A stretch of DNA of 64,000 bases from Escherichia coli (GTDB lineage Bacteria > Pseudomonadota > Gammaproteobacteria > Enterobacterales > Enterobacteriaceae). Position 1 is the first letter of the stretch, and every line of letters starts with the position of its first letter. The position numbers and the translations under genes are program-made. Below are positions 26,373-48,958 of the stretch, piece by piece. The notes below the pieces were generated by a model. It did no database searches. It was not told where the DNA came from and saw nothing but the letters and a program-made list of their open reading frames with translations. The stretch is from NCBI RefSeq assembly GCF_016026235.1, contig NZ_CP065613.1. One strand, given 5' to 3'.

Positions 26373-27168
26373 GGTTCTCTCCAGCTTTAGTGTCGTTTTG
26401 TGTAGGGCAAAAACGAATGACATTCGTTAAATTAATCGGAAAACAAAGCATTACCTTTTAACTAAAAGATAAGTGACCGTGTTGACATAGTTTTAGCGAG
26501 AAATTAATTCTCCATAGGAGAGCAATATCACATCGCAGAATTACAGTGAGAACGTGCATAAATTTAGCGGGAAAAGACATAAGGGAAAGCCAATTTGTCA
26601 GACAAATTGTCGAATGCACAGCAGATTAATCCATAAGATTAGCCTGGAAATCCTTGTTGTCTTTGGTACCCATGCGGGATGTCTTCTTTTTAACCAGTCA
26701 ATAGGCCGCATTACCTGGCGTTGAGTTTTTGAAATGGTGTAATAACCGCAACTCAAAGATGTGGAAAATGCACGTCATTCATTTCGTCATTAATTATCAC
26801 TGTGCTCATTAATTAACATAACACGTATAATGAGAGCCATCTCGCAAAAATGAAAAAACGTTTTATAAAATCATCACTTCATCATGAATTCAAATTCATT
26901 GATTAATATCAACAAGATACAAAAAGCACTATCATTAAAATTCATTGCAGTTACATTGATTTCATCAATGAAATGTAAAAATATATAAACTTGATGATTT
27001 AAGCATTTTCTTATACCCGTTCAGACGTTATTCTTATTTCAGATCATCGTCAGAATTGACTCCACGATCACATTTCGGACCGGCAGAAAGGAATTATTCT
27101 GCAAACAGTAATTATGGTGTTTTGATTTATCTTGCACCTCTCCACTTCTGGATATAAGGATATTAGGT

Positions 27169-27672
27169 ATGGCAACCGCTGGAATGCTTCTCAAACTCAA
27201 CTCTCAAATGAACCGCGAGTTTTACGCATCCAATCTCTACCTTCACCTGAGTAACTGGTGTTCTGAACAGAGTCTGAACGGCACCGCCACTTTCCTTCGC
27301 GCCCAGGCACAGAGTAATGTGACCCAAATGATGCGCATGTTTAACTTTATGAAGAGTGTCGGCGCTACCCCCATCGTTAAAGCCATTGATGTTCCCAGTG
27401 AAAAACTGAACTCTCTGGAAGAACTGTTCCAAAAAACGATGGAAGAATACGAGCAACGTTCTAATACGTTGGCACAGTTAGCCGATGAAGCGAAAGAACT
27501 GAATGATGATTCAACCGTCAATTTCCTGCGCGATCTGGAAAAAGAACAGCAGCATGATGGTCTGTTGCTGCAAACCATTCTTGATGAAGTGCGCAGTGCG
27601 AAACTTGCGGGTATGTGCCCTGTGCAGACCGACCAACATGTTCTGAATGTCGTGTCACACCAGCTGCATTGA
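27169..27672 (+). CDS. ftnB: Ferritin-like protein FtnB (167 aa)
   Basis: Full-length match [40 protein letters not shown]... Confidence 0.92.
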
Positions 27673-27714
27673 TCATCATCGGCGCTAATGCATTGCGCCG
27701 ATGAAGGTTTTGAG

Positions 27715-27752
27715 AAACCGCTGCCTCATCTGTTTGAAGCAGCGGTTTTTTT
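27715..27752 (+). terminator. Rho-independent terminator downstream of ftnB
   Basis: Hairpin CCGCTGC...GCAGCGG followed by a run of 7 T. Confidence 0.7.
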
Positions 27753-28002
27753 AATGGGATTCACCCTGTGGGGTAAACTTGAGTTCAATAAGCGCGATGG
27801 CTTTTTGGATTGCCCGCATGGTGACCGGGTCTGCGGCGGCGGGATGGTTAGTAAAGTCGATATTCTTCAGCTGACTGGACATTTTTTCACGAACTTCAAC
27901 GGGCGCGATTACATCGAGAACATCCAGAATTTGTTTGATAACCAACTGGCAAGCAACCACATCAGAAACCAGTTCCTGATCGGCATTCAGCGGCTGGGAC
28001 AT
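27751..28002 (-). CDS. yecJ: DUF2766 family protein YecJ (83 aa)
   Basis: Full-length match [31 protein letters not shown]... Confidence 0.88.
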
Positions 28003-28088
28003 CGTAAACTCCTGATAGCATTTTGAAAGCCGTTATAGTAGCGGCTTCACATCTTCAGCGATAGTCACATCCACCGTCATCAGGACAC

Positions 28089-28116
28089 AAAAAAACCTGC
28101 CGGAGCAGGTTTTTTG
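28089..28116 (-). terminator. Rho-independent terminator downstream of azuC
   Basis: Hairpin CCTGC-CGGA-GCAGG flanked by A-run and T-run (bidirectional form). Confidence 0.65.
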
Positions 28117-28203
28117 TTATCGGAACATATTGCCTGGCGGTACGTCTTTGAACGTCTTGCAATAGTTATTGAACATACTTTTCAGGATTTTGCGCAGTTT
28201 CAT
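28117..28203 (-). CDS. azuC: Small membrane-associated protein AzuC (28 aa)
   Basis: Minus-strand translation ATG(28201-28203)...: MKLRKILKSMFNNYCKTFKDVPPGNMFR*. Not in the supplied ORF track (below its length cutoff). Confidence 0.85.
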   Translation of the reverse strand: MKLRKILKSMFNNYCKTFKDVPPGNMFR

Positions 28204-28465
28204 CGCGGCACTCCGACCATTTGTTATACAGGTGTTATTGTCTTTGCGCTTATAATATGACAACCATCACAAAAATCAATCTTTATGTGATACAAATCAC
28301 ATAAATACCCCTTTAATGTTATAAAAATGATAATCAAAAAACAGCCCCCCTATTTCTGACACCTACAGATGGCAAGAAATAGCGCCTGCCAGGCGTCTTT
28401 TCCGGCCATTGTCGCAGCGCTGTAACGCGTAAAATAGTGCTTTCTCTTACTCTTCTGGCTGGACC

Positions 28466-28789
28466 ATGAGACTTCTGATTCTGACTCTTTCATTAATAAC
28501 GCTGGCGGGGTGTACGGTTACTCGCCAAGCCCATGTGAGCGAAGTTGACGCGGCAACAGGTATTGTACGGTTGGTTTATGACCAGGCTTTTTTGCAGCAT
28601 GCCCATACCGATCGTTATGTCAGTCGCGGGATCGCCGATCGCGCATGCCAGCAGGAAGGCTATACCCACGCGATCCCCTTTGGTCAGCCAGTAGGCAACT
28701 GTAGCCTTTTTGCGGGTTCCTTATGTTTGAATACGGAATTCACTTTGTCATATCAGTGCCATCATTCCGCCTTCCCTGTCTTTCTCTAA
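28466..28789 (+). CDS. yecR: Lipoprotein YecR (107 aa)
   Basis: Match MRLLILTLSLITLAGCTVTRQAHVSEVDAATGIVRLVYDQAF...; lipobox LAGC. Confidence 0.9.
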   Translation: MRLLILTLSLITLAGCTVTRQAHVSEVDAATGIVRLVYDQAFLQHAHTDRYVSRGIADRACQQEGYTHAIPFGQPVGNCSLFAGSLCLNTEFTLSYQCHHSAFPVFL

Positions 28790-28959
28790 ATATTTTAATC
28801 AGCGAGGGGATCTTCGCTGATTAAATAAATAGCGGTAATGCGTTTTATTCCCATTCGTATTTTTAATAATTGAAGTTTATATTTTACCTTTTGCAAATAA
28901 TAAAATAACAAATTATAGTGACGCCACAGCAACAAATATAACCTTTGTGGAGCACTATC

Positions 28960-29457
28960 ATGCTGAAACCAGAAATGATTGAAAAACTTAATGAGCAGAT
29001 GAACCTGGAACTGTACTCTTCACTGCTTTATCAGCAAATGAGCGCCTGGTGCAGCTATCATACCTTCGAAGGTGCTGCCGCGTTCCTGCGCCGTCACGCC
29101 CAGGAAGAGATGACGCATATGCAGCGTCTGTTTGATTACCTGACTGATACCGGCAATTTACCGCGTATTAATACCGTTGAATCTCCGTTTGCTGAATATT
29201 CCTCACTTGATGAATTATTCCAGGAAACCTATAAACACGAACAATTAATCACCCAGAAAATTAACGAACTGGCTCATGCTGCAATGACCAATCAGGACTA
29301 CCCAACATTTAATTTCCTGCAATGGTATGTTTCTGAGCAGCATGAAGAAGAGAAACTGTTCAAATCGATTATTGATAAATTAAGCCTGGCAGGCAAAAGC
29401 GGCGAAGGTCTGTATTTTATCGACAAAGAACTCTCTACCCTCGACACACAAAACTAA
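28960..29457 (+). CDS. ftnA: Ferritin FtnA (165 aa)
   Basis: Matches FtnA from [55 protein letters not shown]. Confidence 0.94.
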
Positions 29458-29463
29458 TGCTCT

Positions 29464-29490
29464 CCGGCGGCAGGTTTACTGCCGCCGTTT
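29464..29490 (+). terminator. Rho-independent terminator downstream of ftnA
   Basis: Hairpin CGGCGGCAG-GTTTA-CTGCCGCCG followed by TTTC. Confidence 0.65.
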
Positions 29491-29494
29491 CAAA

Positions 29495-29734
29495 TCAGTG
29501 ACGGCAAATCTTACTCTGATCGGTCGAAAAACCGTCTTTCGAAGGTATAAATTTGCCTTTTGCTGCCAGAAACGCTACCAGCTCTCCCGCTGTCATCCCT
29601 TCTGCCGAGCAGGTGTGAAAACGTGCCTGTTCACCAAAACGCGCTTTAATCGCAGCTTCCAGACTGGCATGCGTATATTGCTCGCCTGATTCAATCATCA
29701 TATTTAACACTTCATGACCGTGAATAGAGTCCAT
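29495..29734 (-). CDS. yecH: DUF2492 family protein YecH (79 aa)
   Basis: Full-length match MDSIHGHEVLNMMIESGEQYTHASLEAAIKARFGEQARFHTCSAEGM... Confidence 0.88.
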   Translation of the reverse strand: MDSIHGHEVLNMMIESGEQYTHASLEAAIKARFGEQARFHTCSAEGMTAGELVAFLAAKGKFIPSKDGFSTDQSKICRH

Positions 29735-29924
29735 CGTCCCTCCTCAAAAAAAGCCTAGCGTAGCGATTGCCGCTTATGAAGACTTTGCGCCAGCGCAGGA
29801 CTGAATGCTTTTTATTGTACATTTATATTTACACCATATGTAACGTCGGTTTGACGAAGCAGCCGTTATGCCTTAACCTGCGCCGCAGATATCATTCATA
29901 AAGATCGTCAGGACAGAAGAAAGC

Positions 29925-31136
29925 GTGAAAAACAGAACCCTGGGAAGTGTTTTTATCGTGGCGGGAACCACAATTGGCGCAGGCATGCTGGCAATGCCGC
30001 TGGCTGCGGCCGGTGTTGGTTTTAGCGTTACGTTAATCTTGTTGATTGGGCTTTGGGCGTTGATGTGCTACACGGCGCTATTACTGCTGGAGGTGTACCA
30101 GCATGTTCCGGCAGATACCGGTCTGGGCACGCTGGCAAAACGCTATCTGGGACGCTACGGTCAATGGCTGACGGGCTTCAGTATGATGTTCTTAATGTAT
30201 GCTCTGACTGCGGCATACATCAGCGGTGCCGGTGAATTGTTGGCCTCCAGCATCAGCGACTGGACAGGTATTTCAATGTCGGCAACCGCTGGCGTGCTGT
30301 TGTTCACTTTTGTTGCCGGTGGCGTGGTTTGTGTTGGAACATCGCTGGTCGATTTATTTAACCGTTTTCTGTTCAGCGCCAAAATTATTTTTCTGGTGGT
30401 GATGCTGGTATTGCTGCTACCGCATATTCACAAAGTGAATCTTTTAACCCTGCCGTTGCAACAGGGGCTGGCTCTGTCAGCAATCCCGGTGATTTTTACC
30501 TCATTTGGTTTTCACGGTAGCGTGCCGAGTATTGTCAGCTATATGGATGGCAACGTTCGTAAGCTACGCTGGGTGTTTATAACCGGTAGTGCGATCCCCC
30601 TGGTGGCATATATTTTCTGGCAGGTGGCAACGCTTGGTAGCATTGATTCAACAACCTTTATGGGATTGCTGGCTAATCATGCTGGATTAAACGGGCTGTT
30701 ACAGGCGTTACGCGAAATGGTGGCCTCTCCGCATGTTGAGCTGGCAGTGCATTTATTTGCTGATTTAGCCCTCGCCACGTCATTTCTCGGCGTTGCGTTA
30801 GGCTTATTTGATTATCTGGCTGATTTATTTCAGCGTTCAAATACCGTTGGTGGACGGTTGCAAACTGGTGCAATTACCTTTCTGCCGCCGTTGGCGTTTG
30901 CACTGTTTTATCCACGAGGATTTGTGATGGCGCTGGGTTACGCCGGTGTGGCGCTGGCGGTACTGGCATTGATTATCCCTTCGCTGTTGACCTGGCAAAG
31001 CAGAAAGCACAATCCTCAGGCGGGTTACCGGGTGAAAGGTGGTCGTCCGGCGCTGGTGGTGGTGTTTCTCTGTGGTATTGCTGTGATTGGCGTGCAATTT
31101 TTGATTGCGGCAGAGTTGTTACCAGAAGTGGGGTGA
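29925..31136 (+). CDS. tyrP: Tyrosine-specific transport protein TyrP (403 aa)
   Basis: Full-length match; GTG start codon at 29925 ([30 protein letters not shown]). Confidence 0.94.
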
Positions 31137-31197
31137 TCAGATAGCCTCAAATTCCTTATTGGGTGCCAGAATTAACGCTGACACCCAATTTGACCTC

Positions 31198-31863
31198 TTA
31201 ATGCAGGCAGCACTGCTTAAATTTCTTACCACTACCGCACGGGCAAGGATCGTTACGCCCCGGTTTCTCTTCTGCTTTGATCGGTTGCTGAACAGCTTTT
31301 TCCTGCGGATGCGCCATCCAGTACGCATGTAGATCAAGCGCCGCCAGTCGAATGGCATCTACGCTCTCTTCAAACGCTTCTGGCGACATTTTCTCTACCC
31401 GCTCGAAGTTTTCCTCAGTACCGTGCAGCGCAATCGCCTCCAGCGCTGGTTTTAACGAATCGGGCAACGTTGACCAGTCAGAAAGTGCCACGCCCCGCAT
31501 ATAGCCAAAGCACCACTCCTCAACAATCGTCAGCTCGCTGCCATCAACTTCTCGCAAGCCGAATAACGGCTCAAACTGCTCCGGGAATTCGTTCAGACGC
31601 TCTGCGGTATCGGCCATATGTTGAAAAGCCAGGTTCATAAAGCGCGTCATCTCTTTCTCTGACGCCCAGCGCGGCACATAGTCAGCCCCACCCCACACGG
31701 CAACCAGCCACTGTGCCGGTTCAATCTCTTGCGGAGAACTCAACACCGCCGTCAATAAACCGTCCAGCTCCGCCACATCAAGGATGGCGTGGTCAGTGTT
31801 GTATTTGGTCAGAATATCGTCCAGCCATTCCAACTCACTTTCGTTTAACGGTCCCGTTTTCAT
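31198..31863 (-). CDS. yecA: UPF0149/SEC-C-motif protein YecA (221 aa)
   Basis: Full-length match; C-terminal metal-binding SEC-C motif [20 protein letters not shown]. Confidence 0.93.
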
Positions 31864-32002
31864 ACGCTTTTCCTTGTGGATCTCAACTCGCCAGCACCTA
31901 TCTTACATGCCGGTCCGTATCAGAGATACTTTTTGAGTGGCTTTGCCGGTGATTAAAAATTAAGGAGGGTGTAACGACAAGTTGCAGGCACAAAAAAACC
32001 AC

Positions 32003-32114
32003 CCGAAGGTGGTTTCACGACACTGCTTATTGCTTTGATTTTATTCTTATCTTTCCCATGGTACCCGGAGCGGGACTTGAACCCGCACAGCGCGAACGCC
32101 GAGGGATTTTAAAT
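32003..32114. repeat. Left direct repeat of the island: terminator-like hairpin plus 56 nt copy of the tRNA-Leu 3' end (32059..32114), att-like
   Basis: About 95% identical to 60482..60601 (the 3' part of intact leuZ and its downstream terminator); tRNA identity is lost after ...GAGGGATTTTAAAT at 32114. Confidence 0.85.
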
Positions 32115-32379
32115 TCTACGTAGGATCAATGAGTTACATAGCAGTGCATTGTGAAACTTTGCTGACGTTGAATGGTCGTCTTTGCAACCACTGGCAGAAA
32201 ATGGATAGCCGTAGATTGCGTTGAGCACAGAAACAGCACAGGGTAATCGTCTACCTGGTCCTGTAAAGGAGGTTGTTGCCACACAAGCTAAAGCGCTTGA
32301 CCTGCCCCCAGTATTCGGTACAACTGTCAGTTAGTAATGGACTGACCCCGTTACTTTATTCGTACCCCTTATAATGGGG

Positions 32380-32576
32380 TGTTAGCCAGCCAGACCCGGC
32401 ATGATTACTGCCCCCAGTCGTCCATGATCCGGGGGGTGATGTCACCGGGTCTGGTGGGGCGCTGGTAACCGCTAATAGGGGTCAGGTCAGGCACTTTTGC
32501 CGGGACCGTCTGTAACGTGGATGCCGGTACCTGCTCCCCGTGGTTATCTGGTTAACCCATATACAAGGGAGACAGA
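32380..32576 (+). ncRNA. Candidate structured non-coding RNA upstream of the IS110-family recombinase (possible bridge RNA)
   Basis: GC-rich non-coding stretch with a long inverted repeat (CCAGACCCGG ... CCGGGTCTGG) immediately 5' of the recombinase; bridge RNAs are encoded in the 5' non-coding end in the IS110 subgroup (established for IS621). Inference only. Confidence 0.25.
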
Positions 32577-33773
32577 ATGACCGAATCCAGCGATTACGAA
32601 TCCGTCCAGGTCTTTATCGGCGTTGATGTCGGTAAAGATACGCATCACGCTGTTGCCATTAATCGTTCAGGTAAACGCCTGTTCGATAAAGCATTACCCA
32701 ACGACGAAAACAAACTCAGGTCGCTAATATCTGACCTGAAACAACATGGTCAGATACTGCTGGTTGTTGATCAGCCAGCTACCATCGGTGCGTTACCTGT
32801 CGCCGTTGCCCGCTCAGAAGGAGTCCTTGTCGGATACCTCCCTGGACTGGCCATGCGCCGCATAGCCGACTTACACGCCGGTGAAGCTAAAACTGATGCT
32901 CGTGACGCTGCCATCATTGCCGAAGCTGCCCGTACCCTGCCTCACGCGCTACGCACGCTGAAACTGGCTGACGAGCAAATCGCCGAACTCTCCATGCTCT
33001 GCGGCTTCGATGATGATCTTGCCGCACAGACAACGCAGGCCAGCAACCGTATCCGCGGCCTTCTGACCCAGATACATCCGGCACTGGAGCGCGTTCTCGG
33101 TCCGAGACTTGAGCACCCGGCGGTACTCGATCTTCTCCAGCGATATCCCTCACCAGAAAAACTCGCTTCGCTGGGTGAGAAGAAGCTGGCAGCCCAGCTC
33201 TGCAAACTTGCGCCTCGTCTGGGTAAACGCCTTGCAGCAGACATAGCTCAGGCACTGGCCGAACAAACCGTCGTCGTTCCCGGCACGAATGCCGCTGCCG
33301 TAGTACTGCCACGTCTGGCACTCCAGCTCATCACGCTGCGTAAGCAAAGAGACGAGGTGGCGCTTGAGGTAGAACAGCGAGTTCTTGCTCACCCTCTTTA
33401 CCCGGTCCTGACCAGTATGCCCGGAGTCGGTGTCAGGACCGCAGCCAGACTCCTCACCGAGGTCGCCTGCCGCGCCTTCGCCTCTGCCGCACATCTCGCT
33501 GCTTATGCTGGCCTTGCGCCGGTAACTCGGCGATCCGGCTCGTCAATACGCGGTGAGCATCCCTCGCGACGGGGTAATAAAGCTCTCAAACGGGCGTTGT
33601 TCCTGTCGGCCTTCGCCGCGCTCAGGGATCCGCTCTCCAGGGCTTACTACACCCGCAAAATGAGTCAGGGAAAACGACACAATCAGGCGCTTATCGCCCT
33701 GGCGAGACGACGCTGCGACGTTCTGTTCGCCATGATGCGCGACGGGACTTTTTATACCCCGCAGGGGTCATAA
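32577..33773 (+). CDS. IS110-family transposase/recombinase (398 aa)
   Basis: N-terminal RuvC-like DEDD motif VFIGVDVGKDTHHAVAIN and C-terminal Transposase_20-type block PGVGVRTAARLL; RBS AAGGGAGA upstream of the ATG. Confidence 0.85.
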   Translation: MTESSDYESVQVFIGVDVGKDTHHAVAINRSGKRLFDKALPNDENKLRSLISDLKQHGQILLVVDQPATIGALPVAVARSEGVLVGYLPGLAMRRIADLHAGEAKTDARDAAIIAEAARTLPHALRTLKLADEQIAELSMLCGFDDDLAAQTTQASNRIRGLLTQIHPALERVLGPRLEHPAVLDLLQRYPSPEKLASLGEKKLAAQLCKLAPRLGKRLAADIAQALAEQTVVVPGTNAAAVVLPRLALQLITLRKQRDEVALEVEQRVLAHPLYPVLTSMPGVGVRTAARLLTEVACRAFASAAHLAAYAGLAPVTRRSGSSIRGEHPSRRGNKALKRALFLSAFAALRDPLSRAYYTRKMSQGKRHNQALIALARRRCDVLFAMMRDGTFYTPQGS

Positions 33774-33869
33774 CATGCTTGACAACTTAATAGGGGCACC
33801 CCCCGGTAGACGATCCTGCCCTATAGTTGGACTGACCCCACCCCGGTAGACGATCCTGCCCTATAGTTT

Positions 33870-34053: not shown

Positions 34054-36396
34054 TGTTCTTATTACCTTTAACTAATTATGCCAATTCAGACTCAAACGCT
34101 GCATCATTCGCTTCAGCCTCTGCGCCATCAATTAATGCCAAGACTCGGTCAAGAAAGCGTTGCGCTTCGTATACATCTGTTGCTTGCCGCAGATAATGAG
34201 GTATTCGTTCAACAAACTCGGAACGTGATAAAGGCTGATGTTCCAGCAAAGCCTCAAGCATTGCGGGCCGCAACAAACGACGATCAGCATCAACATTAGG
34301 AAGCTCAACCTCAATGACATGTGTGGCAAAATACTTAAGTTGCTCCTTAAGCCCCAAATTGGGCATAAGAGAATCAATTGAGTCAGACGCCACTTCAGCG
34401 CTTGACTCAATCGTTTCGACATATTCACAGGAAGGTACAACAACGTCTGGAGCCAATGTTTTAAGCTCATGGAGTTTACGGATAATCGGAGATAGAACCT
34501 CATCAGGATTACTGAACCAATCAGTGGACCAAATGCGGCTAATTCTCCAACCCAAACGCTCCAGAACCTCTTGACGCAAACGGTCACGATCACGAGCAGA
34601 TTTAGCTGAGTGATAAGCCGCACCATCACACTCTATGCCCATTAAGTAACGGCCAGGACAACCTGGATCTTTCACAGCTAGATCAATAAAGAATCCTGCA
34701 ACCCCTACCTGAGGTTCACACTCAAACCCAGCGTGATTGAGTGCTTCCATTACAGCAACCTCAAAGTCACTATCTGGAGCCCTGCCGGTATGCGTTGTGA
34801 GGGAATCTAGTTTGCCACTTTCGGCAAACTGTAAAAAACCTTTCAACGAAATAACACCAAGTTTACTGGTTTCACTCGTCAATACATCTTCAGAACGCAT
34901 TGAACTAAACACATGCATCCGTTTTTTTGATCGAGTGAAAAGCACATTCAAGCGACGCCAGCCAACATCGGAATTGATAGGTCCAAAGCGTTGATAAACC
35001 TTTCCACCATGCTCAGAAGGTCCATAGGTAAAGGAAATAAAGATTACATCACGCTCATCCCCTTGAACGTTCTCAAGGTTTTTCACAAAAAGTGGCTCTT
35101 CCATGGCATATAAGCCATCGATTGCATCGTTAAATTCAGGGCGATTTCGGCGCAATTCATCGATAGCGCGCTCAATTTGATCGCGTTGCTTGGAACTCAT
35201 GGCCACTACCCCGAGTGACTCACCCGGCCGGTGTTGCGCATGATGAAGTACGGCCTCAGCAACTGCTTGGGCTTCTTCAATATTGTGTTGATTGGAGAAC
35301 CGACCTTTTGACACATAGGTAAATTTAATCCCATACTCTGGAGACTCAGCATTTGGGGAAGGGAATATCACCAAATCACTGTTATAAAAATGGCGGTTAG
35401 AGTATGCAATCAACTTTTCATGTCGTGAACGATAGTGCCAACGCAAACGTCTCATAGGAAACAGTGGCAAAGCAGCATCCAAAATGCTGTCAGTATCACT
35501 TAAAGCCGCGGCATCATCGTCATCTTCTCCGTCGGCACTTCGATCAAAGAAACTGGTTGGTGGTAGCTGTTTCGGGTCACCAACGACCACTAGTTGCTTG
35601 CCCCTCGCGATGACACCCAATGCATCCTCTGGCTTCACCTGAGACGCTTCGTCCATCACCACCAGATCAAATTCCATTCGTCCAGGTTCTAGGTAATGAG
35701 CTGCTGACATTGGCCCCATCATGAAACAAGGTTTAATTGCAACCAGCGCATTACATGCACGGTTAACCAATTGCCTAATTGGAATATGTCTGGTTTTTTT
35801 ACCCAACTCATTTTTGATCAAAGCTAGTTCTGTATATTCACTTTTCTTACCACCAGAATTCCCTTCTGGTATATTTCGGTAAGCAATTTTTGCTGCAATC
35901 CGCTGACGTTGTAATTCAATCAGTTTTTTGTCGTAATCTTTAAATGACTTCTGCAAAGCATTGCGCTGTGAGCCGGAAACTCTCATCAATTCAGGGTGGA
36001 TGTGAATAACCTCCCGCGCCAGCTGGTCATGAATTGCTAATGCTAAACCCAATTCAACTTTTTCAATCGGGAGCGAGCCCGCAAGTACAGCACTCCAGAT
36101 TCGCTGCAATCCATTTTCATGCATCTGCTCGTAACAACGAATAAAGTTAACCCACCCGTTCAACCAACGGGGTTGCTGTATTGCTCTTTCGTTGCGCTCG
36201 ATTAATGTATTAAGAGAACCATCAGTCGACTTGAGCCACTGACTCCGCTCTAACTTTGTTTCTAGCGCATATAACTCAGCATTTTTAATCTGTTCATTCC
36301 ATTTCGAAACTATTTCCCCACCATCACGACATAGTAAATCGGGTGATGCTGCCAACTTACTGATTTAGTGTATGATGGTGTTTTTGAGGTGCTCCA

Positions 36397-36672
36397 GTGG
36401 CTTCTGTTTCTATCAGCTGTCCCTCCTGTTCAGCTACTGACGGGGTGGTGCGTAACGGCAAAAGCACCGCCGGACATCAGCGCTATCTCTGCTCTCACTG
36501 CCGTAAAACATGGCAACTGCAGTTCACTTACACCGCTTCTCAACCCGGTACGCACCAGAAAATCATTGATATGGCCATGAATGGCGTTGGATGCCGGGCA
36601 ACTGCCCGCATTATGGGCGTTGGCCTCAACACGATTTTACGTCACTTAAAAAACTCAGGCCGCAGTCGGTAA
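36397..36672 (+). CDS. insA: IS1 protein InsA
   Basis: [43 protein letters not shown]... matches InsA. Confidence 0.9.
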
Positions 36673-37094
36673 CCTCGCGCATACAGCCGGGCAGTGACGT
36701 CATCGTCTGCGCGGAAATGGACGAACAGTGGGGCTATGTCGGGGCTAAATCGCGCCAGCGCTGGCTGTTTTACGCGTATGACAGTCTCCGGAAGACGGTT
36801 GTTGCGCACGTATTCGGTGAACGCACTATGGCGACGCTGGGGCGTCTTATGAGCCTGCTGTCACCCTTTGACGTGGTGATATGGATGACGGATGGCTGGC
36901 CGCTGTATGAATCCCGCCTGAAGGGAAAGCTGCACGTAATCAGCAAGCGATATACGCAGCGAATTGAGCGGCATAACCTGAATCTGAGGCAGCACCTGGC
37001 ACGGCTGGGACGGAAGTCGCTGTCGTTCTCAAAATCGGTGGAGCTGCATGACAAAGTCATCGGGCATTATCTGAACATAAAACACTATCAATAA
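36591..37094 (+). CDS. insB: IS1 transposase InsB reading frame (expressed as InsAB by -1 frameshift)
   Basis: ORF matches InsB (...[21 protein letters not shown]...); overlaps insA in the -1 frame. Confidence 0.85.
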
Positions 37095-40000
37095 GTTGGA
37101 GTCATTACCAGTAAATCGTAATCACTACCACTAGCCAAATGTCTGATCTGGGTAGCCAAGGATACGCAATTTATCTTATCAACCAGTTGCTCGGCAAAAT
37201 TCAGCGTGTCGTTAATAGTGTCTAACGTCAGTTGATTATTTTTATACGCACCGCAAGCCAATGGGGTTAATTGTAAAAACGCCCCTAACTGTAACGAGTC
37301 ATTTTCAAGGGATATCTGAAGATCGTTTATGTTTTGCAAAATCTCGGAGGAATGAGTCATCTGCTCTAATGATATATCTGGATTGATAAACCATCCCTGC
37401 AAGGCAATGAGAGTATTCCGCACCTGTCGGTAAGATTGCATCAATACACCTTGCTCACCTAACCAAGATGCATGTTCTTCCAACAAGCTAGAAATACGCG
37501 GTAATAACTTAGCCTCGTGCTCGACCCGTTTAACCAAAGTCATTAATCTTGAGCTAATCTGCGATTTCTCGATTAAATGCACACCTTTGATAATCTCACC
37601 ATCTAGGTTAATTAATCCAGAGCCTATCGCAACTCGCTTTCCAAAACCTATCCCGTAACAAGCTCGGACCTTCTTGTACCAATCACGCAATAACATGAGT
37701 TGTTCACAGTCGGTGTCCAACCCTCGGAATGCATTACCAAGTTGATTACCAAAGTCACTTTGTTCAAACCGTTGTAACAGCTCCGAATACTTGAGCAAAT
37801 CAGCTGAGCAGCGTTTTAACTCAGCAAACTTAGTGTCAGGCTTACGAGATTGCGCCATGAGCAGTGCCTTGGCACTACGCCAATCACTCTTAAACCATGC
37901 AAATAATCCCCCTTGCTGGATAACAGCAACGGCATGCGCGAGCATCTCTTGGGAAGGCAACTGGTCCAATTGATACAAAGTAGATAGACCATCTCTTAAA
38001 GGACGCAATGTTTCGATTTGACACATTAAGTCGCGCAATACTGCATCGATATCATCATCATCAAAAAGAGGATCTCGAACTCTAATAAGCTCAGTCGGTA
38101 AAGCACCCAGAATCGACAACAACTCAGAGCAGAATAGCAATCCAGCTTGCGAATCATCGATATACGAAGCAATACCATCTGGCAAAGCATTTTTGAAATC
38201 GTTTAATTGCGCATAAATAGATGATAACTCATCATGAATTGATTGGATGGATTCAAGCCACCTGACCAAATCACGTAAAGTGAAATCCTCTGCTGCACCA
38301 TATTTTTCCAGCTCTTCACGAGGAAAGTCACACGATTGTCCTTGTTCTAAAAGTCGTAGCTTTTGAGGCTCGATAACCTGGCTCAAGGCCACATAATGAC
38401 CTTGTAGCAACTCGAACCTATCTAAATAGTGACGCACCCGTGCAATGGCATCGAGTGAATCTAGCTCACTAAGTGCTGGGAAATGCTCTGAACCACACAA
38501 CACTGGAAGATTCGACTGATCTTCTACCAATTGCTCAATATATTGAAGCGTATTAAGGCTTTCGCCTTCTAACGCCCACTTATCTACATATTCTTGATAG
38601 CTATGTTGAAAGTCGATAATTGATGTCTGCCAAGTTTGTAGCAAATCGACTATACGAGCGCTGTCAAACAATTGAATTTGTGTGTTATTCACACCGCTCC
38701 AAGGGTGCTCATATATTTCTGCATTAGCCCCCACCTGCTCACGAACCTCTTTGTAGATGCGGCTAAACTCTACTATTTGGTCACGCAGCCGTAATTGGGT
38801 CACTTTATCCAACTGCTTCCCGGAAAGGTTTTCGATATGAAGTGCTGTTGCATCAATATCTAATTTGTGACGATAACGTGTTGCACCACTCAAAATCTGA
38901 TGGATCGTTTTGCCTGTTTGCGCCCATTGGTTATTGATCAATGCGGCATATTCATTGAGCTGCTGCTTAAGATCTTCATAACGCAAAATCTGAGCATCAA
39001 TCTCTTCCATAGTAGGCATGGTCGCCTGACTCACCAAGCGAGCATTAATATCATCCAGCACCTTGCGCTTATGAGTTTTATGACTGTGCAACTCTAAGCA
39101 AAATTGACCTAGCCCCGCACGATCCAAGCGACGTTTGACGACCTCCAGTGCAGCCATCTTCTCTGCCACAAACAGGACTTTCTTACCGTTGAGCAGAGCT
39201 GCTGCAATCAAGTTGGTGATCGTTTGTGATTTGCCACTACCAGGAGGGCCCTCAATGACTAAGTTTTGACCACGGATAGCATCGATCAACGCACTGTGCT
39301 GCGAGCTATCCGCATCATCGATTAGTGGAACCTTGTCATGAATATCAGGGTAACTATCGATGCAGTACTCATGCTGACCGAAGCCACCAGGTAAGCCGGA
39401 ATTCTCTTGACCACAGCTCTGACTGGTGAAAAAGCGACGAATTACTTCATGAGACAATATATTGCGCTTGTCACAAGGCCAGCGGGCAGGATCGAGGTCA
39501 AGATACATCATCATCTTGCCAAAATTGAGCAAGCTAAGTGCACCATAACGTTTCACAGACCATTTAGGTTTGTGCTGCTCTACAACCTTCTTCACCGAAG
39601 CAAAATAAGACTCTGGAGTTTCCTCTTCATTGAACAAAGGAAGAGCGAGGCCAAAGTCAGCCTGAAGTTTTTCCTTCAAAGAGAGATTGGGCAAAATATC
39701 TTCACCCGTGTAATAAAGTTGAAACTTGTAAAGACCATCCTTCGGATCTAATTTTCCTCGTTCACATCTCACCGGAATTGTAAATAACGGTGCATAACGT
39801 GCCTTTTCAGAGGAATCGCTTTCATACCACTCAAGGAACCCTAACGCCAAATACAAGATGTTGGCGCCACTCTCCTCCAAAGCAGTTTGAGCCTTACCAT
39901 AGATGGCGCGCAAACAAGCTTCCAGTTCATTTGGATAAAGCAGAGCCTGTATCCGATTATCGTCATGAGAGGAATTGGAAGAAGATATACTAATCTCATT

Positions 40001-40774
40001 CCCAGCCTTTGCCTGTCGTTCAAAATCCTCAAGCCCTTCATAGCCTGCTAAGCAGCACGCCTCCTTCAACGCTGACAAAGCTATACCTTGATTAACGTAT
40101 TCAGAACGAATCCCTGTTAATTTTCCATTCTGGCCTTGGGCATATTGCAAGATAAACTGATGGGCTTTTTCCAGCAACTCTCTATCTGAATCAGAAACAA
40201 CCGTTTTATGGCTATCTGGTAAATCAAAATCTGTACGGATTCCTAAGACGTGCGCCCAATCCTTAGCGCTAGGATGAGCTCTTAACTGTATATCTTTACC
40301 ATCTGGCCCAACTTTGAGATAGCCATGCTCTAACAGCTGCGCTCTAGTTGGATCGGGCACAGGAGCAAATTCCATCGGGATTTCCGAGCAAAGGGTTTCA
40401 TAAAGCTGTTCTGGTAATTCATCAACAATACGTAGTGAAGACCCTTTTTGAGTGATAGGGAAATTCAAAAGTCGATTTCGAGACGTAAGGTCCAATAACT
40501 TCTTACGCATAGCCTCGAGGGAAGTCAGAATAAAATCTGAGCCTCCTTGATTGAGTTCCTCTGCTGTAGAGGTATCTACAGTCGACATAATGTTCTCCAT
40601 TTCTTAGGGTCCACAAGTAAAACGTTTTATGCTGATGCATCACAAAAAGACCGCAGTAAACTGCTGCAAAGAAGAGGAGATTTTTAGTCTCCCCTTCTTT
40701 ATCAATCAGATCATACAATCAACTTAACGCCCATTAGTTGATAGCAGCCAAATTTCATAAACAGATTCAATCCG

Positions 40775-42817
40775 TTATTGCTGAATTTGATTGGATAGTA
40801 AGACCTGCAACATATCTTGTTGATGCTCAGCTATCTCATCTTCCAGCCAACGACCTTTATCTTTCATCAGCCGAATCATAGCAAGCAATTTAAGACTATC
40901 AGTCTGGTTATTGGCAAGGCTTGCTTCAAAGTGCTCCTGCTTCTGTTGCGGCTGGAAGTTACTCAAGCGCGAGTTCTTGCTGTGGCTGATAAGGCAAAGG
41001 TTGCCAAACGAATGGAGTGCACTCTGCTCAACCGGTTTATAGCCATCCATCGGATGCTGGGGTGAGAAGTGCTCCACCGAGCTGCGGAAAGTGAACTCAA
41101 AGGAGCCAGCAACTTTGTCGCTATTCCGATCTCGTACCCACAGCAGATAGTCGAGGAAGTTGAAGACAAAGTTGTTCTCGATATGACCGAAGCGAAGTTT
41201 GGATGTAATCACCTTGTGCCAACTCTCATCCACATTGATGGCGGGCAACAGGGCGTTATCAAGGTAGAGCATCTGGTAATAGGAAGCCCCTTCACCAGGC
41301 GCCAAAAAGCGCTGGAAGACAAAGCGGCGAGCCTGACTCTCCAGATAGGACAGATAAGCCCCGGCATCCACCGGTTGATCAGGGTGACAATTGTCGAACA
41401 GATATCTCAGTGCACCATTCAGCCAATGTTTGTAAACCAGGGTCGGGGTCGACACATGAAACGCCGACAGCAACATCAGGACCCGCCGGTTAACACCAGA
41501 GAAACCATTCTCATTTTCATCCTTGTCAAAGGTATTGATGTAACTGACGCTCTTTTCCGAATACCAGTGCAGCCGCTTCAGACTCCAACTATCCTTGCCA
41601 TCGGCAAACTCGCGCTTGATGATGAACTGATCAAACAGATACTTGCTCTTTAACAGGCCATAGATAAAACGCTGAACTGCCGCTACTGGATCCGGTTGCC
41701 TTATCACTCGCAGCTCAAACTGATCGACCAGTTGTTTATCATCAAGCGGCACCCCCTCCGTATCACCCGGGTCGCGGCTCACGAGTCGCAGCACATGGAG
41801 CAAGAAGTTGGAGAAGTTGATGACGCTGTTAAAGCGCTCGGAGCCTGCGCTCTCCTCCTCCACCGTCTGCTCACCATCAAGCTTGTCATCCTGCAAAATG
41901 GCCAACAAGGTGCGCCCTTGGCTACCGGCAGCTGCACGGCTTTTATCGGCAGCGTCGGCCGTGTTTGGGGATCCTAGCAGTTCAAGCAGATGGGCAAAAT
42001 CACGGGGCACAAACTGACCCCAGTCGCTCTCACCAAACAGACGGTGGCGCTCTTGCGGGGTAAAGCCGTACTGGATATAGCGCTCCATATTGGCGCAGGC
42101 ATCCCATACCCGAGTCAGGATATGAATACTTTGGCGACGATGCTCTTCCTCGGGTATCTGGTTCAGCGTCTCCATCAGCCGCGCCTTGATCACTTCATGC
42201 TTTTCCAACTGCTCGCCGCGATTGTTCATCGCCTCGAAGAAGTGATTGAGATCGGTATCCTTGGGTACTTCGATACGAGAGATCTGCACATGCTTGAAGA
42301 GGTAGTCGCAAAAGGCCGTCAGTTTAGCCCCTACCAAACCAAGATCCGCCATTGCCTTGCCAATCAGCTCAAAACCGTTCACCAAACCTTCATTGAAGGT
42401 ACTCCCCCGCAAATCGTAGGGGGCAACACCCTGCCATAAGCGCTCGAAGGTATGGCTCGATATCGGGCGACTCTCAAAAGCGAGGTTGATGGTCTGATAC
42501 CAGCTCATATCCACCGAATCTATCGCGTGATGTTTGAGCCAATTGGCCAGCAGAGAGAGGGTAGTAAAGCGCTGCTGGCCATCGATTACCTCGAAACTGC
42601 CATCGTCCCGGGCAAACACCACCAGGGTGCCGATATAGTAGGTTTGCGGCCCCTTACCACTGACCAATTTTTGCTGATAATCCAGCACATCCTGCAGCAG
42701 CTGGGTGATCTCTCCCTCACCCCAGGCATAGTTGCGCTGGTACATGGGCACCAGATAGCGGGCGCGATCTTCAAGCAGTGCACGAATGGAAAAGGGGCGA
42801 ACGCCTGCATCATTCAT
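40775..42817 (-). CDS. DUF262 + DUF1524 (HNH-like) protein, GmrSD-family type IV restriction-like (680 aa)
   Basis: N-terminal DUF262 motifs ([26 protein letters not shown]) and C-terminal HNH-type block ([19 protein letters not shown]). GC-rich compared with the AT-rich island cargo. Confidence 0.75.
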
Positions 42818-44264
42818 AATATTTCATCTCCCGAAACAGCCCGACCAGCTCATCTTCGGCACCATTGCGATTGTTCTTGTTCTCTCGACTGCTCATGCTA
42901 GGCAAAGGGAAGCCGTGCAGATCTCCCGGCAGACGAGCATCACGAATGGCACGGATCAGATTGTGCTCCAGCACATAGTTATCCATGGTTGCCAACTGCA
43001 CTACCTGCTGGCGGATGCGGCAGCGATAGGCCCAGATAAAGCACTTCTCGATGGCCAGTGACAGCCCTTGGCTGCCGAACTTGTCGATATAGAAGATCAG
43101 TGCGCAGTCGAACATGGCCCGCACATAACGATCCCCGGTGCGGTGGCGACGCTCGTAGCTGCCCAGGGTCGATAGCACCTTGCTGGCCATCGGTGTCAGC
43201 GTTTCGCCGAGCAGGGTGGCAGATTGCGCCTTGCCGGAATCAGACTCCTCGGCCACGATGGCGGCCACCCGCGTCTGGTAGTACTCGGCCATCTCGAAAA
43301 AGCGCCGACCATTGATGATCATCTGGTCGAGATGAAAGGGAAACGTCATGTACTGGCCGTCAATCTTGCGCTGGTACTGGCGGTTGTACTCATCGACAAA
43401 GTGGTGGGCGATGCGCAGCGACTCCACGTAAGGATAATGCCCTACCCGATCTAGGTTGACCCCCTTGAAGAGATCCACCTCCCCCTTGCCAAAGTAGCGG
43501 GCCGACTTGCCCTCGGCCCACTGGCGTACCCGATAGAGATAGAGGGCGAACAGATTGGCCAGCTCGTCGCTTGGCAGGCGCTCCCAATGGGCGACCGCCT
43601 CGGCCTTGAGATTGGCCTCATGACCGGCAAACTCGCGCAGGTGAAATGCCTTGAGCAGATCGTGAGGAGCCAGATCGCGCCCCCGGGCATTTTGCGAATC
43701 GAAGAACTGGAACGCCTCCGAGATATCCTGCAGTACAAAGCAGACCACCTGACAGCGGTTGAGCAGAAAGTCAATTTGCTGCTCGTCAAACTCAGGGCGG
43801 GCCACCAGCCGACGCAACTCCAGATAGTTGCGTCTGAGGTTGAACTCCGAATCCCGGCTGGGGAAGCGCTGGCGCTGCATAAACGCATCGATAGGTCCAC
43901 GCAAGACCTGCAATTGCTCACGCAGATCCTGACGTTGAAACCGGATACTCTTCTCTTTGCCACTGCGATTTTCGTTATCCAGCACCTCGATCAGCGCCTT
44001 GACGGTCAACATCAGGGTCAGGGTGCGTTGCTGACCATCGACGATATCAAGCATCTCGCCCTGCTCACTATCGGTGTGCTGATGAAACACCACCGAGCCC
44101 AGCCGGTAGGCGCTCTTGTCCTGATGGGTTGCCAAATCGGTAAAGAGATCCGAGATATTCTTGGAGCCCCAGCGGTAAGGTCGCTGATAGCTTGGGATGG
44201 CCAGTTGGGGAATGGCCAGCAACTGGCGTACCGACTGCACTTGATTATTAATGCTCTCCATCAT
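42810..44264 (-). CDS. DUF262 (ParB-like nuclease/NTPase domain) protein (484 aa), partner of the downstream DUF262-DUF1524 gene
   Basis: Motifs [17 protein letters not shown] and [12 protein letters not shown]; 3' end overlaps the downstream gene start by 8 nt. Confidence 0.7.
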
Positions 44265-44276: not shown

Positions 44277-44887
<611 letters not shown>

Positions 44888-44918
44888 GACAAATGAGCCC
44901 ATTGGAATAAGTTAGAAA

Positions 44919-45674
44919 CTACATATCTGCCAACAACATCCCAGCCATACCATCCAGTCGCTTCTTAACCTTTTCCCAGCCCGGCATAACCTGCCCCATC
45001 AGACGGTAAAACTCCTCGCTGTGGTTGTGCTCAGCCACATGGCATAACTCATGTAGCAAAACATAATCGATACATTCTGAGGATGCCTTAACCAGCCATG
45101 GATTCAGGGTCAGACAGCCTTTTGCTGAACAGTTGCCCCATTGCGTTTGCATCGCCCGCAGACGTATCGGAGGACGCTCACTGACCCAAAGGGTCTGCGG
45201 AATCAGTAAATCAAGCCTGCGCTGAAAAACATCTCTGGCACGTTCCCGATACCATTCAGCCAGCAAGGCTTTAATCTTTTCTGCCGATTTGTGTCTGACA
45301 GTCACTTCCAGACGCCCACGCAACATTTTCACTCGTTGCGGCACAGTAGCGTCTTCTGTCACTTTCAACTGATATTGCTTACCGAGATAATAATGGCTTT
45401 CTCCGCTGACATACTGACGCGGAACAATGTGTATCTGTTGCTCCCTGAAATCACGCAGTTGCTGGTATATCCAGCGCCCACGTTTTTTCAGCGCAGACAA
45501 TACCTCGTGCTCCGGTGTTTCAGGCGGTACAGAGGCCACAACCCGGCAGTCCGGATAAACCTTAATGAGCACCCTGCCCTTTACGACCTGACGCGGAACA
45601 CACTGTACGACGATGACCTCATCACCATAGACAATGCGTAACGCTTTCATTGATGGCGATTCTTTTTCACTCAT
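44919..45674 (-). CDS. M48-family zinc metallopeptidase (YgjP/DUF45-like), type I R-M associated (251 aa)
   Basis: HExxH motif LLHELCHVAEHNHSEEF; start overlaps the hsdR stop; this family is commonly encoded next to type I hsd genes. Confidence 0.75.
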   Translation of the reverse strand: MSEKESPSMKALRIVYGDEVIVVQCVPRQVVKGRVLIKVYPDCRVVASVPPETPEHEVLSALKKRGRWIYQQLRDFREQQIHIVPRQYVSGESHYYLGKQYQLKVTEDATVPQRVKMLRGRLEVTVRHKSAEKIKALLAEWYRERARDVFQRRLDLLIPQTLWVSERPPIRLRAMQTQWGNCSAKGCLTLNPWLVKASSECIDYVLLHELCHVAEHNHSEEFYRLMGQVMPGWEKVKKRLDGMAGMLLADM

Positions 45675-48600
45675 GATTTCATCAAACCAACGCGCAGTAT
45701 CTGGATGATGGTTTCAACAATACGGTTAACCTGATTCATTCCGGCACCAATTTCCCGGCAGGCCGTAAACAGCAGTGGTAGCAGACTTGTCTTAACGACT
45801 TTCTCAATGTCCTGGGGGTTCAGGGAGTTTTCTGCCACCGCTTTGACGATAATGTTGTCCACTTCAAAAGCCAGCTTCGTCCACTTATCCTGCACCTGAA
45901 CGTCGTTTACCGCAAAAACCTCAGGTAGCTCTTTTTTAAATACACCGTAATACGCCTGAGCATGCTTGTTTACCGCCAGTGCATCCGGGATATCGCTGAG
46001 CTTACGGGCTTCAACCTGTTCTTCAAATTCACGGAACAAAAGGTACTGTTTCAGCGGATGGTCAAACAGTTTTTCAGCCTCTTCGATAGCCATACGCAGG
46101 AGTTTTGAAAATGCCTCCTGAGCATACGGGTCATCACGCAATTCCTGCTCAATCATCTTTGTCACACGGGTTTTAATGATGTCGGTTTCATTGCGGGTTT
46201 TATTGTTGTCCCACTCTTCGGGCTTTTCGCTCTTGCCCATTTTACCGACTTCATACACGCCATCCGGTTCACGAACTTCAACGCCGGTGACATGCTTATC
46301 CAGCAGTTTTTTCACCTGCTCAGCGTAGTCGTCATAATTGACCTGCTCTCCACTTACCTGCATCGCCCACTGGCGCAGGCTGGACATCTGTTTTACGGTT
46401 TCTTTATAGAGATTTCGGTCTTGTTCCGTAAAGCTCTTGTCGGTGAAGAAGGTAGCGGACTGCAGTGCCACTTTCAGGCATCCGGCAAAGGCCGTTAACG
46501 CCTCGAAGAAATCATCACGGGTTTTCTGATGGATATCGACCATCTCTCCGTCACGTTCTTCCATTTTAGGCACCAGTACCGCACGTAACTGCTCAGTATC
46601 ATTTTTGTTTTTAACACCGGCAAATATGGCCCACAGCTGGTTATACAGATGCGGCAGGCGCTTGTATTCAGAGCTCATGGCGCTGTACAGCCCGTCAATA
46701 TCTTTGATATCGTATCCGCCCTGAGTTCGGGAGGCGAGGTCCTGATATTTGCCGATAGTCGTGTCCAGCTCAGCCAGAATACCGCGATAATCAATCAGCA
46801 GACCGAACTTTTTTAGTGGATGCAGTCGGTTCACCCGCGCAATCGCCTGGATAAGGTTGTGGGACTTAAGCGGCTTGTCGATATACAGCACGGTATTCTT
46901 CGGCTCATCAAACCCGGTGAGCAGTTTATCAACGACTATCAGCAATTTGAGCTTCTCATCGGTATCGAAACGACTGATGACATTACGGGTATACACAGAC
47001 TCATCCTGCGTGCCGACATTATCCTTCCACCATTTCGTCACTTCCGGCAGTTTGCTTTCATCCACTTCGGTATTCCCTTCCCGGGTATCCGGCGGGCTGA
47101 TAACTACAGCTGACTCAAACAACCCGGCTTCATCAAGATACTTTTTATATTTGATGGCGGAAATCTTGCTGTCGCAGGCAAGCTGGCCTTTCAGTCCCTC
47201 ATCAATATTCTTCGAGAAGTGCGTGGCGATATCGAGTGCGATCAGACGGATGCGATCATCTGCACTATAAACCTCACCTTTACGGGCATATTTACGCTTC
47301 AGGTCGGCTTTTTGCGCTTCGCTTAACCCATCGGTAATACGATCAAACCAGGCATCTATTGCCCGATCGTTAACCTCAAGGTCGGGAATACGTTCTTCAT
47401 ACAGCAAAGGTGTAACGGCTTTATCTTCTACCGCTCGCTGCATGGTATAAGCGTGGACAATCGGCCCGAATTTATTAGTGGTCTTATCTTCTTTCAGCAA
47501 CGGCGTACCGGTAAATGCCACAAAGGCGGCGTTCGGCAGTGCCAGTTTCATTCGCACATGGTTCTCACCCCCCTGGCTCCGGTGTCCTTCATCAATCAGT
47601 ACGATGATGTCGGGGCTGGTATTGACGCATTCAGGAAGTTTTGTCGCTGAATTAAATTTCTGGATAAGGGTGAAGATAATGCGTTCTTTACCAGAGCCAA
47701 TCTGCTGTGCCAGTTTCTGGCCAGAGGTCGCCATTGCTTTGGCCTTATCATCCTTTCCGGCCAGTTCGCCACCAGAAGCGAAAGTGCCGCTGAGCTGCCC
47801 TTCAAGATCGACACGGTCCGTCACCACCACAATGCGACACTGCTTCAGGCTGTCATGAAGAATCAGCGCCTTACTGAGGAACACCATGGTGTACGATTTA
47901 CCGGAGCCCGTGGTATGCCAGATCACACCACCTTCTCTGCCCCCGTCCGGTCTGCGGGTGCTTATGCGTTCCAGCAGCCTTTTAATCCCGAACACCTGCT
48001 GATAGCGGGCGACAATTTTCCCGGTCTTTTTATCAAACAGGGTGAAAAAGCGGGTCATCTCCAGCAGACGTTCCGGTGAAAGCAGGCTGATGAGCAGCTT
48101 ATCCTGCCCGCTGACGGCCAGTTCACCGGCGGCGATTAACTGTTGGTACCAGTCGAGATCGGCTGAAGGACGATGATCAAACAACGCATGAATTTGTTCA
48201 GTCGATAACTTATGGTTGCGCAGCGCATACATCTGCGCGTAAGTAATATCTTCTTCGCGCCATGCCGCCCAGAATTTCATTGGTGTATGACAGGTACCGT
48301 AGCGCCCGTCATGCCCGTTAATCGACAGTAATATCTGGCTGTAAGCAAACAGCTGCGGGATTTCGTCGTTGAGCTGATTGCGGATACTCTGGGATATCCC
48401 TTCGTCAATGGTTGGCCCTTTCTTGCCGTGACCCGCCGGGCTTTTCGCTTCAATGACGGCCAGCGGGATACCATTCACAAAACACACAATATCCGGTCTG
48501 CGGGTTTCGACACCGCCTGACCGCAATACCGTAAATTCTTCGGTAAAATGGAACTGGTTATTTTCCGGATGTTCCCAGTCGATCAGCGCAATGGTGGGGT

Positions 48601-48958
48601 TCACCTTCTTGCCATCGACAAACTCCGTGACGGCGATACCGTAGAGCAGATGGTTATACATCCGTTCATTGGCTTTGAGCAGCCCTTCATTGAGCGCCGG
48701 AGAACAGACCTGTGATATCAGGTTATCCAGTGCTTTTTCCGATAACTGGCAGGTTTTGCCACCCGCCATAAAGGAACGCTTCGACAGCTCTTCACGCAGA
48801 ACCGGACGCAGCACCACCTCATCCTGTTTATAGCCCCGGTAATCCATAATCTGTTTCGGAGATAAAAACGTCCAGCCGAGGCTGGTCAGTAACGTCAGTG
48901 CCGGAATTTTGGCGCTGTATTCTTCCTGGAATTTTGGCGTGTACGTCTGGTTCATCAT
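45671..48958 (-). CDS. hsdR: Type I restriction enzyme R subunit HsdR (1,095 aa)
   Basis: Size and motor-domain motifs (TGSGKS Walker A, DEGHRSQ DEAD-box-like motif II) typical of HsdR. Confidence 0.9.
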   Translation of the reverse strand: MMNQTYTPKFQEEYSAKIPALTLLTSLGWTFLSPKQIMDYRGYKQDEVVLRPVLREELSKRSFMAGGKTCQLSEKALDNLISQVCSPALNEGLLKANERMYNHLLYGIAVTEFVDGKKVNPTIALIDWEHPENNQFHFTEEFTVLRSGGVETRRPDIVCFVNGIPLAVIEAKSPAGHGKKGPTIDEGISQSIRNQLNDEIPQLFAYSQILLSINGHDGRYGTCHTPMKFWAAWREEDITYAQMYALRNHKLSTEQIHALFDHRPSADLDWYQQLIAAGELAVSGQDKLLISLLSPERLLEMTRFFTLFDKKTGKIVARYQQVFGIKRLLERISTRRPDGGREGGVIWHTTGSGKSYTMVFLSKALILHDSLKQCRIVVVTDRVDLEGQLSGTFASGGELAGKDDKAKAMATSGQKLAQQIGSGKERIIFTLIQKFNSATKLPECVNTSPDIIVLIDEGHRSQGGENHVRMKLALPNAAFVAFTGTPLLKEDKTTNKFGPIVHAYTMQRAVEDKAVTPLLYEERIPDLEVNDRAIDAWFDRITDGLSEAQKADLKRKYARKGEVYSADDRIRLIALDIATHFSKNIDEGLKGQLACDSKISAIKYKKYLDEAGLFESAVVISPPDTREGNTEVDESKLPEVTKWWKDNVGTQDESVYTRNVISRFDTDEKLKLLIVVDKLLTGFDEPKNTVLYIDKPLKSHNLIQAIARVNRLHPLKKFGLLIDYRGILAELDTTIGKYQDLASRTQGGYDIKDIDGLYSAMSSEYKRLPHLYNQLWAIFAGVKNKNDTEQLRAVLVPKMEERDGEMVDIHQKTRDDFFEALTAFAGCLKVALQSATFFTDKSFTEQDRNLYKETVKQMSSLRQWAMQVSGEQVNYDDYAEQVKKLLDKHVTGVEVREPDGVYEVGKMGKSEKPEEWDNNKTRNETDIIKTRVTKMIEQELRDDPYAQEAFSKLLRMAIEEAEKLFDHPLKQYLLFREFEEQVEARKLSDIPDALAVNKHAQAYYGVFKKELPEVFAVNDVQVQDKWTKLAFEVDNIIVKAVAENSLNPQDIEKVVKTSLLPLLFTACREIGAGMNQVNRIVETIIQILRVGLMKS

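Follow-up and report, generated by a model that had tools for sequence, protein, structure and literature searches.

A stretch of 64,000 nucleotides of Escherichia coli DNA (contig NZ_CP065613.1), called the window here, very probably carries hhe, a single-gene anti-phage defence that an insertion sequence (IS), IS1, has turned into a pseudogene. The gene lies in a probable pipolin-type island between yecA and tRNA-Leu. When IS1 and one copy of the short repeat that flanks it are deleted in silico, an unbroken open reading frame (ORF) of 1915 amino acids runs on the minus strand from 40600 to 34076. The start that NCBI assigns to intact orthologues is the second ATG (40588), which gives a protein of 1911 amino acids.

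The restored protein matches the available models of Hhe from end to end. The PADLOC model PDLC02194 (Hhe) aligns residues 5-1915 with positions 1-1911 of its 1911-position profile at 4293 bits. The NCBIfam equivalog NF042953 (Hhe_antiphage), which has a curated cut-off of 2000 bits, scores the restored protein at 2736 bits. Taken alone, the 5' fragment reaches 1370 bits and the 3' fragment (as the 682-residue product of an internal ATG) 1268 bits, each below that cut-off. The product name at NCBI is "DUF4011 domain-containing anti-phage protein Hhe". One residue (P917L) distinguishes the restored protein from the annotated hhe of E. coli FDAARGOS_943, and three distinguish it from the hhe of strain CP8-3. 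Because residue 1731 of the 1915-residue frame is the Glu of the motif GIECDG, the published Hhe and the protein of the window share both length and numbering.

Nothing was found that argues against this identification. The initial annotation of the window had stated that no named system could be assigned; the PADLOC run and the NCBIfam equivalog supply the name. Its remark that proteins of this type are poorly characterised holds for the molecular mechanism of Hhe. In the window IS1 splits the intact single ORF that a functional Hhe has. The locus is a member of Hhe by descent, but it is a pseudogene.

The interrupted reading frame

IS1 insertions can be recognized by a 768-bp element with IS1 terminal inverted repeats, by the genes insA and insB', and by a target duplication of 9 bp (occasionally 8 bp). 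All of these are found at 36342..37109. The terminal inverted repeats are GGTGATGCTGCCAACTTACTGAT and GGTAATGACTCCAACTTATTGAT, and the element matches a copy labelled IS1A by NCBI in FDAARGOS_943 at 100% identity along 769 bp. Directly at its two ends lie copies of AGTAAATCG; a perfect 9-bp repeat flanking both ends exactly has a chance probability of ~4e-6. The intact allele of hhe contains AGTAAATCG only once, which settles that the repeat is a target duplication.

Both halves of the gene are free of frameshifts and stops up to the element. A 1170-codon ORF (40600..37088, minus strand) enters IS1 at its right end, where it gains a tail of six residues, VMTPTY, before a stop at 37088. A 759-codon ORF (36355..34076, minus strand) emerges from the left end. 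A Pfam search of the 5' half finds DUF4011, followed by the front of a superfamily 1 (SF1) ATPase (AAA_11, UvrD-helicase). The 3' half has the remainder of AAA_11, then AAA_12, MTES_1575 and DUF559. The 3' fragment also encodes the second RecA-like domain. In the restored polypeptide the domains thus follow one another in the order typical of Hhe: DUF4011, an SF1 (Upf1-like) helicase and a Vsr-like nuclease. GPPGSGKS, DEASQ and GIE(1731)CDG are all kept, and their alignment columns are invariant or nearly invariant.

From the letters alone, the initial annotation had described an IS1 with a clean 9 bp duplication, undamaged frames that join in one frame of about 1,900 amino acids, a layout of DUF4011, SF1 helicase and Vsr-like nuclease, and a Walker A motif before the element with motif II (DEASQ) after it. 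The repeat at both ends of the element, the 1915 codons of the restored frame, the three Pfam domains and the positions of the two motifs (Table 1) bear this description out.

Structure models were made with AlphaFold for the two pieces that IS1 creates, from an alignment of 60 homologues. The predicted local distance difference test (pLDDT) score is 84.5 for the 5' piece and 84 for the 3' piece, and the latter has a predicted template modelling (pTM) score of 0.60. The 3' piece resembles senataxin, Dna2, Sen1, Upf1, IGHMBP2 and Aquarius (Foldseek E 4e-11 to 1e-8). The N-terminal half as a whole has no significant match to any solved structure. Since Walker A occupies residues 447-454 and motif II residues 1387-1391, a helical insert of roughly 800 residues separates the two parts of the first RecA-like domain. 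IS1 sits inside this insert, with its junction at codon 1156/1157 (NCBI numbering), and leaves most of the insert in the 5' fragment. Intact Hhe is a protein of about 1911 amino acids that consists of DUF4011, an Upf1-like SF1B helicase with a helical insert, a Vsr-like nuclease and a helical tail.

Function, loss and spread

Hhe has been named and experimentally tested before. A preprint describes it as having a Vsr endonuclease domain and as active against lambda, T3, T7 and PhiV-1, an activity attributed there to its reference 25; in the assays of the preprint itself, hhe gave weak protection against T7 and none against T4, and the substitution E1731A abolished defence (10.1101/2022.06.16.496414). 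These reports of protection concern the reference hhe only. The reference 25 mentioned above is reportedly Gao et al. 2020 in Science, the original description of Hhe. Vassallo et al. 2022 make no mention of Hhe. The Hachiman preprint places it among the SF1_Upf1 helicases, and ORF65 from the DruSM1 knockout library is an anti-hhe gene.

PhageMaP provides candidates for triggers and for countermeasures. Seven T7 genes of DNA metabolism (g1.4-g2, g2.8) are candidate triggers of Hhe, and g40 of phage Bas63 is toxic only when hhe is present (10.1101/2024.10.10.617714). Hhe is countered by Bas63 gp79 and gp80, which act in NAD+ synthesis, and by gp130 (10.1101/2024.10.10.617714). As phage genes for NAD+ synthesis counter it partly, the authors suggest that depletion of NAD+ or adenine might be involved (10.1101/2024.10.10.617714). 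No biochemical or structural study of Hhe was found in the literature. A sequence search of solved structures returned no Hhe either; only Upf1-like helicase cores matched.

What is established here or in the cited papers is which domains Hhe contains, that its ATPase and nuclease residues are conserved and that defence requires E1731. Beyond this, a mechanism can be proposed. The ATP-driven helicase, together with DUF4011 and the helical regions, would monitor nucleic acid and sense a by-product of phage DNA metabolism. The helicase would then license the Vsr-like nuclease, which might cut DNA and so stop the phage, at the risk of toxicity to the host cell.

In the window, Walker A and motif II are on different polypeptides. 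Because IS1 separates the two motifs, the helicase cannot form. The 3' fragment, which bears the nuclease, has lost the promoter and start of the gene, and its first in-frame ATG would give a product of 682 amino acids. A promoter scan found no outward sigma-70-like promoter at the end of IS1 that faces this fragment, only the inward promoter of insA. Judging from the split ATPase, hhe is almost certainly dead here. Two points weigh against this account of the protein and its loss. Partial rescue by NAD+ synthesis is not predicted by a model in which a nuclease simply cuts phage DNA, and the 3' fragment could still be expressed by transcripts that start inside IS1 and read through.

The insertion is young. 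The restored gene differs from the closest intact allele by 1 substitution in 5748 nt. Neither junction between hhe and IS1 occurs in any of 5426 complete E. coli genomes. A scan for the exact pattern of the left junction in one genome per species gave no match, and neither did an exact-protein look-up with the 1170-residue ORF. The exact truncated product counted from the NCBI start (1166 amino acids) is present on 9 contigs. Six of these loci, IS1 included, were compared with the window: five match it at 100% identity, and the sixth has 6 mismatches (99.9%). The locus in GCA_900449985.1, for instance, covers 9.5 kb and spans IS1 and both junctions. The same insertion is thus common to at least six draft assemblies. 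From these comparisons, the insertion is evolutionarily young and marks a small clonal lineage rather than one isolate. The initial annotation had called it recent. In evolutionary terms this stands, given the lack of decay and the perfect duplication, although more than one isolate carries the insertion.

Apparent matches to the junction in strains E54 and E1316 were rejected. They come from a different IS1 event 361 bp away, in which the 5' 3.1 kb of hhe is also deleted. In CH10982 the gene is hit by IS1B, 55 bp from the site used in the window, and in 2014EL-1343-2 by IS100, about 950 bp further 5'. Three IS1-type events lie within a stretch of about 400 bp in hhe.

As a side observation, ftnB is intact in the window (region 26659..32349) and split in FDAARGOS_943 (locus L010, 43434..49901) by an IS1 that is 100% identical to the copy in hhe. 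That two close relatives have this IS1 variant at sites that differ and exclude each other points to continuing IS1 activity in the lineage.

Neutral decay is enough to explain the repeated IS events, because a gene of 5.7 kb is a large target in IS-rich genomes; the complete E. coli genomes have a median of 10 places that match IS1. Selection against a costly defence is possible. It would be surprising, though, if the four independent IS events reflected selection to switch off a costly, self-toxic hhe in IS-rich E. coli, or a surviving fragment with some activity. If this were true, hhe::IS would be more than a neutral pseudogene.

There is similarly a very small chance that the split gene of the window is not simply dead. 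A fragment could keep a function, for instance as a DUF4011 sensor or as a Vsr-like nuclease that is set free along with the second RecA-like domain, or the loss could have been selected in an IS-rich lineage because an active Hhe carries a cost or acts against mobile DNA that enters the cell. Both fragments are open and undecayed, the insertion persists in those six or more assemblies, the hhe genes of other strains have been hit independently, and Hhe turns toxic when trigger genes are expressed (10.1101/2024.10.10.617714). However, a young insertion suffices to account for undecayed frames, and with dozens of IS copies per genome, so long a gene presents a large target even under neutrality. 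For the 3' fragment the scan showed no outward promoter, and a complete ATPase site is impossible for either piece. A dead pseudogene is therefore the preferred reading.

Elsewhere in E. coli, hhe is a single gene. Its 5' part is found in 287 and its 3' part in 301 of the 5426 complete genomes, nearly always at an identity of at least 99% and on the chromosome. In the genomes that have the gene, the region is nearly always one coding sequence of 5736 nt annotated as hhe by NCBI. At E 1e-3 or better, 5845 cluster representatives are homologous to the first 425 residues. Of the best 150, the full-length ones mostly have about 1700-1900 amino acids, and all 60 diverse homologues that were aligned are single proteins across both halves. 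The initial annotation would have given up its reading if the halves were separate genes in related genomes, which carry them as one. 

Gene callers do report two products at the locus, and NCBI names split alleles elsewhere "DUF4011 domain-containing protein" and "AAA domain-containing protein", but the idea of a natural two-gene system, in which a DUF4011/Walker-A protein works with a separate helicase-nuclease and IS1 merely sits in the spacer, has practically no chance of being right: the frame is continuous once IS1 and one copy of the duplication are removed, every split allele found elsewhere contains an IS, the split would put the Walker A and Walker B motifs of a single RecA-like domain on two proteins, and the intact single-gene alleles and homologues refute it.

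The surrounding island

An island of about 27 kb with hhe as its first gene lies between yecA and the tRNA-Leu(taa)-Cys-Gly cluster, which is adjacent to pgsA (Table 1). This is the integration site of pipolins in E. coli, and hhe is among the exchangeable cargo of pipolins (PMC11551731). The initial annotation had noted that proteins of this architecture occur in defence islands, and a setting of this kind is borne out. The neighbours include GmrSD-like genes, a type I restriction-modification operon and recombinases. The closest complete genome is that of FDAARGOS_943, which is about 99.97% identical across the island.

Table 1. Positions of hhe, its parts and its neighbours in the window
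Feature	Position	Strand	Remarks
IS110-family transposase	32577..33773	+	398 aa; NCBIfam "IS110 family RNA-guided transposase", 239 bits
3' fragment of hhe	34076..36341	-	end of helical insert to C-terminal helical tail
hhe stop codon	34076..34078	-	
Vsr-like nuclease MTES_1575/DUF559	34472..34765	-	Pfam MTES_1575 5.7e-37, DUF559 2.6e-5
Catalytic Glu codon (E1731)	34631..34633	-	GIECDG, residue 1731 in 1915-aa frame
Helicase motif II DEASQ	35639..35653	-	residues 1387-1391 (NCBI numbering)
Target-site duplication, left copy	36333..36341	n/a	9 bp, AGTAAATCG
IS1	36342..37109	+	antisense to hhe; 768 bp; 100% identical to annotated IS1A copy in FDAARGOS_943
insA	36397..36672	+	inside IS1
insB'	36591..37094	+	inside IS1
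Target-site duplication, right copy	37110..37118	n/a	9 bp, AGTAAATCG
5' fragment of hhe	37110..40600	-	codons 1 to about 1160 of 1915-codon frame
Walker A GPPGSGKS	39227..39250	-	residues 447-454 (NCBI numbering)
DUF4011	39665..40501	-	Pfam, residues 34-312, E 3.5e-37
DUF262 gene (GmrSD_N+GmrSD_C)	40775..42817	-	680 aa; directly upstream of hhe
DUF262 gene (GmrSD_N+DUF7834)	42810..44264	-	484 aa; overlaps other DUF262 gene
Partial IS1 (remnant)	44512..44893		
Type I restriction-modification operon and M48 gene	44919..52427	-	
M48 metallopeptidase gene	44919..45674	-	directly after hsdR
hsdR	45671..48958	-	
YecA-family/SEC-C-motif gene	49008..49691	-	embedded in type I restriction-modification operon
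hsdS	49688..50914	-	
hsdM	50904..52427	-	
Tyrosine recombinase	55643..56779		
Tyrosine recombinase	58287..59516		
tRNA-Leu	60547..60633		

The two DUF262 genes have only partial, N-terminal matches to PADLOC models (HEC-06, Orf5, SspE) and no match to an NCBIfam family; together they may be a paired module that resembles type IV restriction and has no name. They were considered as part of Hhe and rejected: Hhe is a one-gene system in both PADLOC and NCBIfam, and the two genes only partially match other models.

Two further differences from FDAARGOS_943 can be seen in the window. An insertion of about 1.5 kb (32350..33827), absent from this site in FDAARGOS_943, separates yecA from the 3' end of hhe. 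A second IS1 (57045..57820) shares about 91% identity with the copy in hhe and borders a deletion of about 10.5 kb (11207..21679 of L010), in which DUF2787, DUF726, a helix-turn-helix regulator, an 866-residue hypothetical protein and two copies of IS600 are lost. The 866-residue protein of FDAARGOS_943 is possibly the pipolin polymerase piPolB. Pipolin-type islands are marked by integration at this tRNA-Leu, by tyrosine recombinases and by a piPolB gene; the tRNA-Leu site and two such recombinases occur in the window. The island of the window resembles what is left of a pipolin once its hallmark gene is gone.

Significance and related systems

The locus is best annotated as "hhe, disrupted by IS1 (pseudogene)" rather than as two hypothetical genes for a helicase and a nuclease, and Hhe should not be counted as functional in inventories of the defence systems of this lineage. 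The restored sequence is a near-reference allele of hhe. Beyond annotation the finding matters little. Strains that carry hhe::IS1 naturally could serve, with the intact FDAARGOS_943, as a near-isogenic pair for measuring the costs and benefits of Hhe. In addition, the DUF4011 domain and the large insert are modelled confidently and resemble no solved structure, so the half of this widespread defence protein that presumably does the sensing still has no structural explanation.

Same gene. Hhe (HheA; "Gao_Hhe" in DefenseFinder) and the gene of the window agree in the full-length model match, in length, in the numbering of E1731 and in island context. Intact alleles are 99.9% identical to the restored protein; the copy in the window differs from them by IS1 at codon 1157.

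Sister family. The ProA anti-phage protein (NCBIfam NF058533) is a related large helicase-nuclease of the DUF4011 type, to which restored Hhe aligns over residues 192-1791. Restored Hhe scores 1136 bits with the ProA model, under the ProA cut-off of 1500, yet it exceeds the cut-off for Hhe. Therefore ProA is a sister family and not the same one.

Shared helicase core. The fold and motifs of the helicase core are common to Hhe and the SF1B enzymes Upf1, senataxin/Sen1, IGHMBP2 and Dna2 (Foldseek E about 1e-10), and Dna2 is, like Hhe, a fusion of helicase and nuclease. The PADLOC models of Mokosh MkoA and MkoC match the second RecA-like region of Hhe. Unlike the Upf1-like and Mokosh helicases, Hhe has DUF4011 at its N-terminus, a Vsr-like nuclease at its C-terminus and, within the first RecA-like domain, a helical insert of ~800 amino acids.

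Functional analogues. Hachiman (HamAB) and Gabija (GajAB), which respond to altered DNA, also couple a helicase to a nuclease effector. All three systems would be activated after phage DNA metabolism or damage rather than by one specific phage protein. Their parts differ from those of Hhe: HamB is a Ski2-like and GajB a UvrD-like helicase, the nucleases are others, and both systems are two-protein complexes whereas Hhe is a single chain. The resemblance of Hhe to Hachiman and Gabija is one of functional analogy only.

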